DNA from: a virus
Taxonomy: Duplodnaviria > Heunggongvirae > Uroviricota > Caudoviricetes
IMG/VR virus record: IMGVR_UViG_2663763227_000008
Coordinates: 1 to 10,066 of that record
DNA length: 10,066 nt
Reading direction: 5' to 3' (one strand)
Shown here: positions 3,102 through 3,535 of the stretch, piece by piece
How the letters are laid out: every line of letters starts with the position of its first letter
Position numbering within the stretch: position 1 is the first letter of the stretch
The notes under the pieces: model-generated
What the model was told of the DNA's origin: nothing
Seen by the model: only the letters and a program-made list of their open reading frames with translations
Databases searched by the model: none
Made by a program: the position numbers and the translations under genes

Positions 3102-3485
3102 ATGACACGCAGAACTCAGTTCAAAGGCAATTCACGTTCTCGTCGTCGTGAGCTTTTAAAGGCAAAGGCATTAGCTAACGGCGTGCTGGCCCGCGAAGAA
3201 GCAATAAGTTCAGAAGTATTACACCGCCCTACTCTAAGCAGAGCGCAGATTCAGGCTAAAGGTACTCACGAAACGCCTGAGCGCATAGAAGACGCTAAGC
3301 CAATTAAGTTCATGGCACAGGACGTGATCTGGCAACAGAAAGAATACAGACGCAATCTGGAGCGAGCGGCCATTGTGTACGCGAATGAGTTTGGACATAA
3401 GCAACCAGAAACTGGTGTATGTCTTCCAAACGTAGCCATTTACGCGGCAGGCTACCGGAAATCAAAACAACTGACGGCGAGGTGA
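3102..3485 (+). CDS. N: N-type transcription antitermination protein (H-19B/933W-like, 127 aa)
   Basis: It is the first gene after pL/nutL, with SD AGGAGG. It has an N-terminal arginine-rich motif, MTRRTQFKGNSRSRRRELLKAKALANG. The sequence matches my recollection of N from Stx phages H-19B/933W. Confidence 0.85.
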   Translation: MTRRTQFKGNSRSRRRELLKAKALANGVLAREEAISSEVLHRPTLSRAQIQAKGTHETPERIEDAKPIKFMAQDVIWQQKEYRRNLERAAIVYANEFGHKQPETGVCLPNVAIYAAGYRKSKQLTAR

Positions 3486-3535
3486 CTTGTGTTGGTCGCC
3501 AGAAAATGAAATTAGGCAGCAAACCACTTATTTGA
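3482..3535 (+). other. Out-of-frame remnant of a lambda/phi21-type N C-terminus, directly after the N stop codon
   Basis: The -1 frame relative to N reads (DGE)VTCVGRQKMKLGSKPLI-stop. From memory, lambda N ends ...GERGITCSGRQKIKGKSIPLI. This frame is open from ATG 3419, but its upstream part overlaps N. Confidence 0.5.

Follow-up and report, generated by a model that had tools for sequence, protein, structure and literature searches.

A probable remnant of a displaced lambda/phi21-type N gene directly behind antitermination gene N of a lambdoid prophage

The N locus and the segment behind it

The window analysed here, a stretch of 10,066 nucleotides (positions 1 to 10,066 of IMG/VR virus record IMGVR_UViG_2663763227_000008), belongs to a mosaic lambdoid prophage whose immunity and early-left region is closest to those of HK97, HK106 and mEp234. 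Its antitermination gene N is the first gene after a pL-like promoter (TTGACA-17-GATACT), and the N product carries the arginine-rich motif MTRRTQFKGNSRSRRRE at its N-terminus and ends in ...YRKSKQLTAR, with the stop codon TGA at 3483-3485 (Table 1). By profile the product is a lambdoid antiterminator N, its match to Pfam PF25694 (N_peptide) scoring 55 bits against a curated cutoff of 27.9 and placing residues 2-127 on profile positions 6-100 of 100. The gene shares 99.4% nucleotide identity with N of 933W, and its protein is 97.6% identical to that of HK97. Overall, the N proteins of H-19B, HK97 and 933W (127 aa) are 97-99% identical to that of the window and represent the same gene, with the same tail and the same fossil behind it. 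Compared with these phages, the window differs only in the downstream module, where a DUF7446 gene stands instead of a gene of the HK97 gp45 or VT2-Sakai p20 type.

Several further features of the surroundings can be noted. A boxB-like hairpin, GCGCTGACAAAGCGC, lies between the pL-like promoter and N and is a candidate, picked out by eye, for a likely component of nutL. Between the repressor region and pL, in the position that rexAB occupies in lambda, a gene encodes a 347-aa ParA/MinD-like P-loop ATPase (Pfam AAA_31 2.8e-13, CbiA); this region matches HK97 around gp48, and the ATPase may be a prophage-expressed accessory or exclusion gene. Downstream of N, the first terminator-like signals on the pL transcript are two T-tract hairpins after the DUF7446 gene.

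Table 1. Features of the N locus and its surroundings, in window coordinates
Feature	Position	Strand	Basis or remark
ParA/MinD-like ATPase gene	1568-2611	+	Pfam
pL-like promoter	2825-2853		upstream of N
boxB-like hairpin	2922-2936	+	by eye
Antitermination gene N, HK97/933W/H-19B type, judged complete	3102-3485	+	ORF, 127 aa
Antisense ORF over the N end and fossil	3310-3522	-	70 aa
'B tail' of N, codons 106-127 (CLPNVAIYAAGYRKSKQLTAR) and stop	3417-3485	+	tblastn, translations
ORF in the -1 frame, ATG inside N codons GVCLP	3419-3535	+	ORF finder, 38 aa
Junction, GTGA microhomology including the N stop codon	3482-3485	+	B-tail N end (AGG/AGA-TGA) versus A-type GGT-GTG-ACT
Fossil, last 17 codons and stop of a lambda/phi21-type ('A tail') N gene	3482-3535	+	-1 frame of N; out of frame with any N body here
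Right edge of block: fossil stop TGA overlapping GAGG Shine-Dalgarno (3534-3537), then ATG of next gene (3546)	3533-3548	+	
Downstream gene, DUF7446	3546-3788	+	80 aa; Pfam PF24233, E 5.6e-29
T-tract terminator-like hairpin	3917-3934	+	
T-tract terminator-like hairpin	3955-3974	+	
erf gene, Erf-family annealing protein	4404-5039		Pfam

Read in the -1 frame of N, the fossil gives VTCVGRQKMKLGSKPLI-stop. A first-pass annotation of this DNA had recognised here, directly after N, the C-terminal end of a lambda/phi21-type N, and alignment bears this out, with an E value of about 2e-20 and 56 of 56 nucleotides shared with N of HK544. When 3470-3545 was used as a BLASTN query, two classes of match were obtained. 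In the first (933W, HK97, VT2-Sakai/Stx2-II, mEp234 and others) the entire query was aligned; in the second, the match begins at query base 13 (= 3482) and sits in annotated N genes, among them those of HK544, DE3 (imm21), mEp043, Huey and Gally, at 95-100% identity, and that of Cronobacter ENT47670. Over the block 3482-3537 the agreement with N 3' ends is 56/56 nt for HK544, 55/56 for the phi21-type gene of DE3 and 49/56 for Cronobacter phage ENT47670, and in these three the block is the in-frame N end ...PRSEMGVTCVGRQK(M/I)KLGSKPLI-stop. At the peptide level, the fossil is identical to N of HK544 at 17 of 17 positions, to phi21 N at 16 and to lambda N at 11. The match to lambda is weaker at the nucleotide level as well (32/57 nt, ungapped); the lambda N end given in the first-pass annotation, GITCSGRQKIKGKSIPLI, was right, as translation of N from NC_001416 confirms.

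The BLASTN matches place the left end of homology at 3482, with a similarity far beyond chance. The fossil begins not after the stop codon, as first annotated, but inside the last codon of N: homology starts at the last base of Arg127, so the N stop TGA lies within the shared GTGA. It extends to 3537, taking in the fossil TGA and the GAGG Shine-Dalgarno (SD) of the next gene, whose ATG follows 9 nt past the SD. These alignments confirm that 3482-3537 is truly homologous, at the nucleotide level, to the 3' end of N genes of the lambda/phi21 type. While the same stretch of last 17 residues closes the N proteins of lambda and phi21, in the window no N body is connected to it in frame, and it gives no sign of translation; reading-frame continuity of 3482-3535 with an N body (ARM, NusA-binding region) is absent.

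The block as a boundary between early-left modules

Two scans of IMG/VR, one with a 20-mer of block sequence and one with a 17-mer of B-tail sequence, yielded 216 loci. The block stands in frame after lambda-like, phi21/HK620-like and IDSIFG-type N bodies, and out of frame after B-tail N. On its right side, at least 8 unrelated genes are found, among them those of the orf28/ral, HK97 gp45, VT2-Sakai p20 and DUF7446 types, the last of which also occurs behind in-frame A-type N genes (L033, L043, L105). Upstream and downstream types are found in 62 combinations in 140 loci, each major N type occurring with 4-9 downstream types. The block is in these respects a mosaic joint, a shared patch between alternative non-homologous modules that come in many combinations. 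At its right end the block closes with ...TTATTTGAG, which most copies continue with G (GAGG), GTGA(G/T)ATATG and the downstream start; the window has GAGGactgatacATG instead.

Longer non-coding A-tail fossils (about 86 nt, YYSKPRSEMGVTC...) are found behind nun, behind inserted small genes and behind other B-tail N genes, one such context consisting of a B-tail N and about 180 nt of other DNA. That they lie behind such varied upstream genes argues for repeated replacement upstream of a constant left boundary. Judged by these arrangements, the A-type N 3' end together with its SD is the fixed left edge of an 'N slot', an edge that upstream replacements and insertions leave behind.

Two of these settings can be described more closely. 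In mEp235 (L007, 671-755), and also in L040, L067, L101 and L068, a near-perfect A-type fossil of 86 nt lies in unannotated DNA after nun; in the HK022/mEp235 type, an N-like gene whose A-like tail (...YYKDSNPLGNKIHAVQKIKLYSK...) is very divergent comes first, then nun, then the fossil. In L049 and L091, a small Cys/His-rich, Zn-finger-like ORF (MTSKQVSYKCYCPLCGRKFSAKAAWKHINDYHP...) separates a B-tail-variant N (...GGSVCLPEVALYAAGYRSMKSITAR) from the A-type fossil.

Lambdoid mosaic joints and gene remnants described previously (PMC2327257) show the same short, near-identical patch at a gene boundary, with unrelated alternatives on both sides and part of a displaced gene left non-coding. Unlike at the usual mosaic joint, the patch here is the 3' end of the regulator N and is set against the stop of the replacing allele, one frame off. 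Because it adjoins the N stop in this way, the fossil mimics a frameshifted gene. A gene remnant at a lambdoid mosaic joint is of a well-known kind, and this feature is real but ordinary.

Variation within the block was assessed in 18 distinct haplotypes that have the 933W/HK97 body, after a single imported allele of lambda-like type had been set aside. In the fossil, 7 of 44 sites are variable (pi 0.026), compared with 13 of 105 third positions (pi 0.020) and 9 of 210 first and second positions in the N body. By fossil-frame codon position 1, 2 and 3, the variable sites number 0/14, 3/15 and 4/15, a distribution of few sites to which gene flow from coding copies may have contributed. Among the changes seen in non-coding context are L->S, S->I and, within the GRQK motif, G->D. 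In-frame copies of the block vary mostly at third positions, in a tally for which some loci had been misclassified as coding: about 8 loci first counted as 'A coding' (KATKRQ... ORF) are non-coding fossils behind a B-tail-variant N and an inserted small gene, and the count of synonymous and nonsynonymous changes by context is weakly informative. Overall, the fossil varies like silent sites and without codon-position bias, a pattern consistent with a silent relic, read from counts that are small and from fossils that can recombine with coding copies and do not form an independent sample.

Across contexts the block hardly varies, which could be read as constraint. It might be selected as a cis element, either as a 'linker' for module exchange or as a region for translation initiation or coupling of the downstream gene. 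In favour of this, hardly any change is seen in it in at least 5 independent non-coding settings, although the DNA immediately on its 5' side decays; a stop/SD/ATG arrangement is found at its end in every case, and modules reassort across it. However, the SD needs only the last ~10 nt, the diversity of the block equals the silent-site diversity of the adjacent N body, and other phages join B-tail N to the genes downstream with no such block in between; an RNA structure signal is lacking as well, and a scan for terminator-like hairpins inside the block found none. We attribute this near-invariance to recency, given that silent sites in the flanking N body show just as little variation, and regard selection of the block in cis as rather improbable.

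Completeness of N and the frame behind its stop

The C-terminal module of the window N is shared well beyond its own type. Residues 106-127 alone, the B tail, are found at 90-100% amino acid identity at the end of the otherwise unrelated N proteins of HK620, HK140, HK629, 1H12 and ECP1 (tblastn), and the B tail also occurs on VT2-Sakai-type N bodies. It varies at 10 of 22 third positions (pi 0.17) but at only 2 of 44 first and second positions, pi being 0.02 in the N body. This pattern suggests that the module is old, under strong purifying selection and exchanged between N types by recombination. The N gene of HK629 (L133, 397-669) joins the phi21 N body (about 64 aa, near-identical) to a B tail, while phi21 N itself (L003, DE3/phi21, 455-754) has the same body with an A tail. 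One body with two tails indicates that the tails are interchangeable modules and natural alternatives to each other. MAFFT pairs the B tail HKQ-PE-TGVCLP...GYRK....SKQLTAR with the A tail SKPRSEMGVTCV...GRQKMKLGSKPLI, C107, G117 and K120 being invariant in it across nine N proteins, and the Pfam N_peptide profile spans A and B tails alike; the alignment is suggestive of homology between the two. The locus shows N proteins to be assembled from exchangeable parts: an ARM/nut-specific head, a middle part and one of two alternative tails that bind RNAP and appear homologous. The HK629/phi21 pair can itself be viewed as a natural domain swap at the RNAP-binding end of N.

These observations bear on the proposal, made in the first-pass annotation, that an event of recombination or an indel truncated an ancestral N, so that an early TGA left the natural end ...VTCVGRQKMKLGSKPLI untranslated. 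The fossil does lie right at the stop and one frame away, the -1 frame is open back to 3419, and in lambda N, which was solved at full length in the transcription antitermination complex (PDB 6GOV), it is the A tail that contacts RNAP. The part of the proposal that holds is that recombination placed the segment here; the part that does not is that the present N has lost its end. The N proteins of SPN9CC, g341c, SI8, HK620, HK140 and HK629, which carry the same tail, have the same ...TAR end, followed by TAA or TGA, and the DNA after their stop is unrelated to the fossil, consisting of sieB on the other strand, hkaQ or a terminator. The ...TAR end is also seen in all top protein-database matches from Salmonella, Enterobacter and Cronobacter, and B-tail N ends in this way without the fossil in hundreds of clusters from several genera. 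Sharing its end with these fossil-free relatives, the C-terminal RNAP-binding region of the window N appears to be full-length, and a counterpart of the GVTC...G.QK motif of the A tail is already present inside the B tail. Upstream of 3482, moreover, we found no nucleotide or -1-frame protein similarity to A-type N, whereas among true A-type genes, across several body types, the shared sequence continues upstream for at least 30 nt more (TAYTAC.GCAAGCCACGCAGTGAAATGGGT, encoding YYSKPRSEMG).

Functional data are available for H-19B N, which is of the same protein type and, with its 127 aa, a fully active antiterminator (PMC3526286). Its last ~27 residues constitute the RNAP-binding region; deletions of residues 101-127, 106-127 and 111-127 impair antitermination at a distal terminator, and residues 121-127 are dispensable (PMC3526286). 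Since B-tail N ends at ...TAR in fossil-free phages and H-19B N is active, the fossil would derive from another, displaced N allele and would not be the missing end of the window N. Judged by its relatives, the window N is not truncated but complete, with a B tail of its own, and the truncation reading is largely refuted and very improbable.

The first-pass annotation had also raised the possibility of low-level -1 frameshifting, near the end of N or at its stop, that would give an extended isoform with both tails. The frame relation is indeed -1, the A_AAA at 3464-3467 permits P-site re-pairing of tRNA-Lys, and the divergent junction variant of L147 (see below) keeps register; as annotated, the alternate frame is open from the ATG at 3419 to the TGA at 3533-3535. 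However, no slippery heptamer X_XXY_YYZ is present in 3419-3485, the only heptamer in N being at 3155, where the -1 frame is closed, and the A_AAA run, the only one, reads TCC AAA in many alleles and so is not conserved. The predicted fold of 3440-3560 is no better than that of shuffled sequences (MFE z = -0.02) and Rfam has no match at the fossil, so that neither search revealed a stimulatory RNA structure. Variation in the fossil, which includes the amino acid changes noted above and is distributed evenly over codon positions 2 and 3, likewise speaks against such an isoform.

Protein databases gave no support for an extended isoform either. No in-frame fusion of N with the A tail was found among 5.8 billion proteins. 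A query with the hypothetical 144-aa frameshift product (N followed by VTCVGRQKMKLGSKPLI) returned 232 clusters from Escherichia, Salmonella, Enterobacter and Cronobacter; among the best 120 of these, query cover was at most 88%, longer clusters were N-terminal over-calls or unrelated fusions, and intact ones ended in ...TAR, sometimes with one extra residue. With the junction peptide as tblastn query, the match was always split into two pieces in different frames. A two-base gap in matches of 93% identity was considered as a possible in-frame tail fusion and rejected; it falls beyond the block on the downstream side, and mEp234 and Stx2 II retain an N of 127 aa. Programmed -1 frameshift sites, such as those of lambda G/GT or of the dnaX type (A_AAA_AAG), resemble this locus in having two overlapping frames and a conserved peptide in the -1 frame, but the N locus is without the slippery heptamer, the stimulatory structure, the conservation of the shift site and the coding constraint in the second frame. 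As B-tail N works without the fossil in many phages and no fused protein is on record, we consider a frameshifted N isoform unlikely and would give it very little weight.

Two mechanically defined ORFs overlap the fossil. The one that opens at 3419 and ends in ...GEVTCVGRQKMKLGSKPLI-stop was rejected as a gene: it has no Pfam match, starts within N and is not conserved, showing a different end wherever the fossil is absent, and its 5' two-thirds are an out-of-frame reading of the B tail. The antisense ORF has an equivalent annotated as a hypothetical protein (ORF C53) in Stx2 phage II and is probably spurious.

Origin of the junction and its distribution

The sequences on either side of the junction can be compared directly. 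Fossil-free B-tail N genes end in AGG-TAA, AGA-TGA-TAA or AGG-TGA-TTG (AGGTAA, AGATGATAA, AGGTGATTG), A-type N genes read GGT-GTG-ACT-TGT (GGTGTGACTTG) at the corresponding place, and the product in the window is AGG-TGA-CTT-GTG. From this comparison we infer that the exact crossover point lies within the 4 nt 3482-3485, and the simplest reading would be a single illegitimate join at a microhomology of 3-4 nt, (G)TGA. The junction AG(G/A)-TGA-CTTGTG follows at least 4 N bodies (933W/HK97, VT2-Sakai, which is 37% identical, phi21/HK620-like and IDSIFG-like). Its presence behind such different bodies argues for one origin, from which homologous recombination within the B tail would later have carried it to other bodies. 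The B-tail N stop is also a joint in its own right, with at least 8 alternative, unrelated continuations.

Our preferred reading, to which we assign a probability of roughly 0.85, is that 3482-3537 is the untranslated leftover of a replaced A-tail N, serving as both a mosaic-joint relic and a crossover patch. A lambda/phi21-type N gene would once have filled this slot, until it was displaced by an N allele whose C-terminal module, the B tail (...CLPNVAIYAAGYRKSKQLTAR), is homologous to the old one but different. Illegitimate recombination at the GTGA microhomology would have joined the stop of the new gene to the old one 17 codons before its end. The window N would then be complete and work through its own B tail, the relic having no role as protein. 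Homeologous and illegitimate recombination have both been discussed as sources of lambdoid mosaic joints (PMC2327257).

The relic presumably persists through being young and repeatedly re-imported. Between phages that differ in their N alleles upstream and in their early-left genes downstream, the block would be the only homology, so that homologous crossover could take place there, with host RecA or phage annealing functions of the Red/Erf type as possible agents, and its last bases would provide the next gene with its stop/SD/ATG arrangement. Homology, frame, completeness of N, reassortment on both sides and silent-site-like variation were observed directly; the single illegitimate origin, the direction of the replacement and the actual use of the block by crossovers are what we infer from them.

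A more far-reaching version of these ideas, namely that the ~56-86-nt block is a selected 'exchange cassette' at the left edge of the N slot, or that trace -1 shifting gives a dual-tail N, seems unlikely to us. If true, lambdoid phages would keep the exchange cassette whether it is coding or not, and it would allow N/nut specificity and early-left accessory modules to reassort by short-homology recombination.

An 81-nt junction query was covered over at least 80% of its length in 637 of 5,426 complete E. coli genomes (about 12%), and one or the other half of it was present in 1,701 of the 5,426; the same arrangement is found in HK97, 933W, Stx2-II/VT2-Sakai and mEp234. Full-text literature searches found no explicit description of this N remnant. 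The genome papers on HK97/HK022 (Juhala et al. 2000, J Mol Biol 299:27) and HK620 (Clark et al. 2001, J Mol Biol 311:657), which those searches did not bring up, may mention it. For annotation, the apparently frameshifted N of Shiga-toxin and HK97-like prophages should be regarded as intact, and should be neither 'repaired' nor called a pseudogene. The A-type N 3' end marks a fixed boundary for exchange of early-left modules and, while no new mechanism is opened by this locus, it provides a clean example of modular evolution.

Two individual loci depart from the common junction. In L147 (2427-2447, minus strand), the B-tail N stops with TAA, GTAAGCTGCACCGTTCAC then takes the place of GTGACTTGTGTTGGTCGC, and the block ends normally; 9 of the 18 bases in this patch differ, with length and register unchanged, and it is the sole occurrence in IMG/VR. 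This divergent 18-nt patch may reflect more than one junction event. In L165, behind the N stop, the fossil begins as usual but from CGCCAGAAA onwards continues as a lambda-like allele, ...GRQKQRGKSIPAYYD-stop, which indicates that non-coding fossils also carry the allelic diversity of coding A tails.
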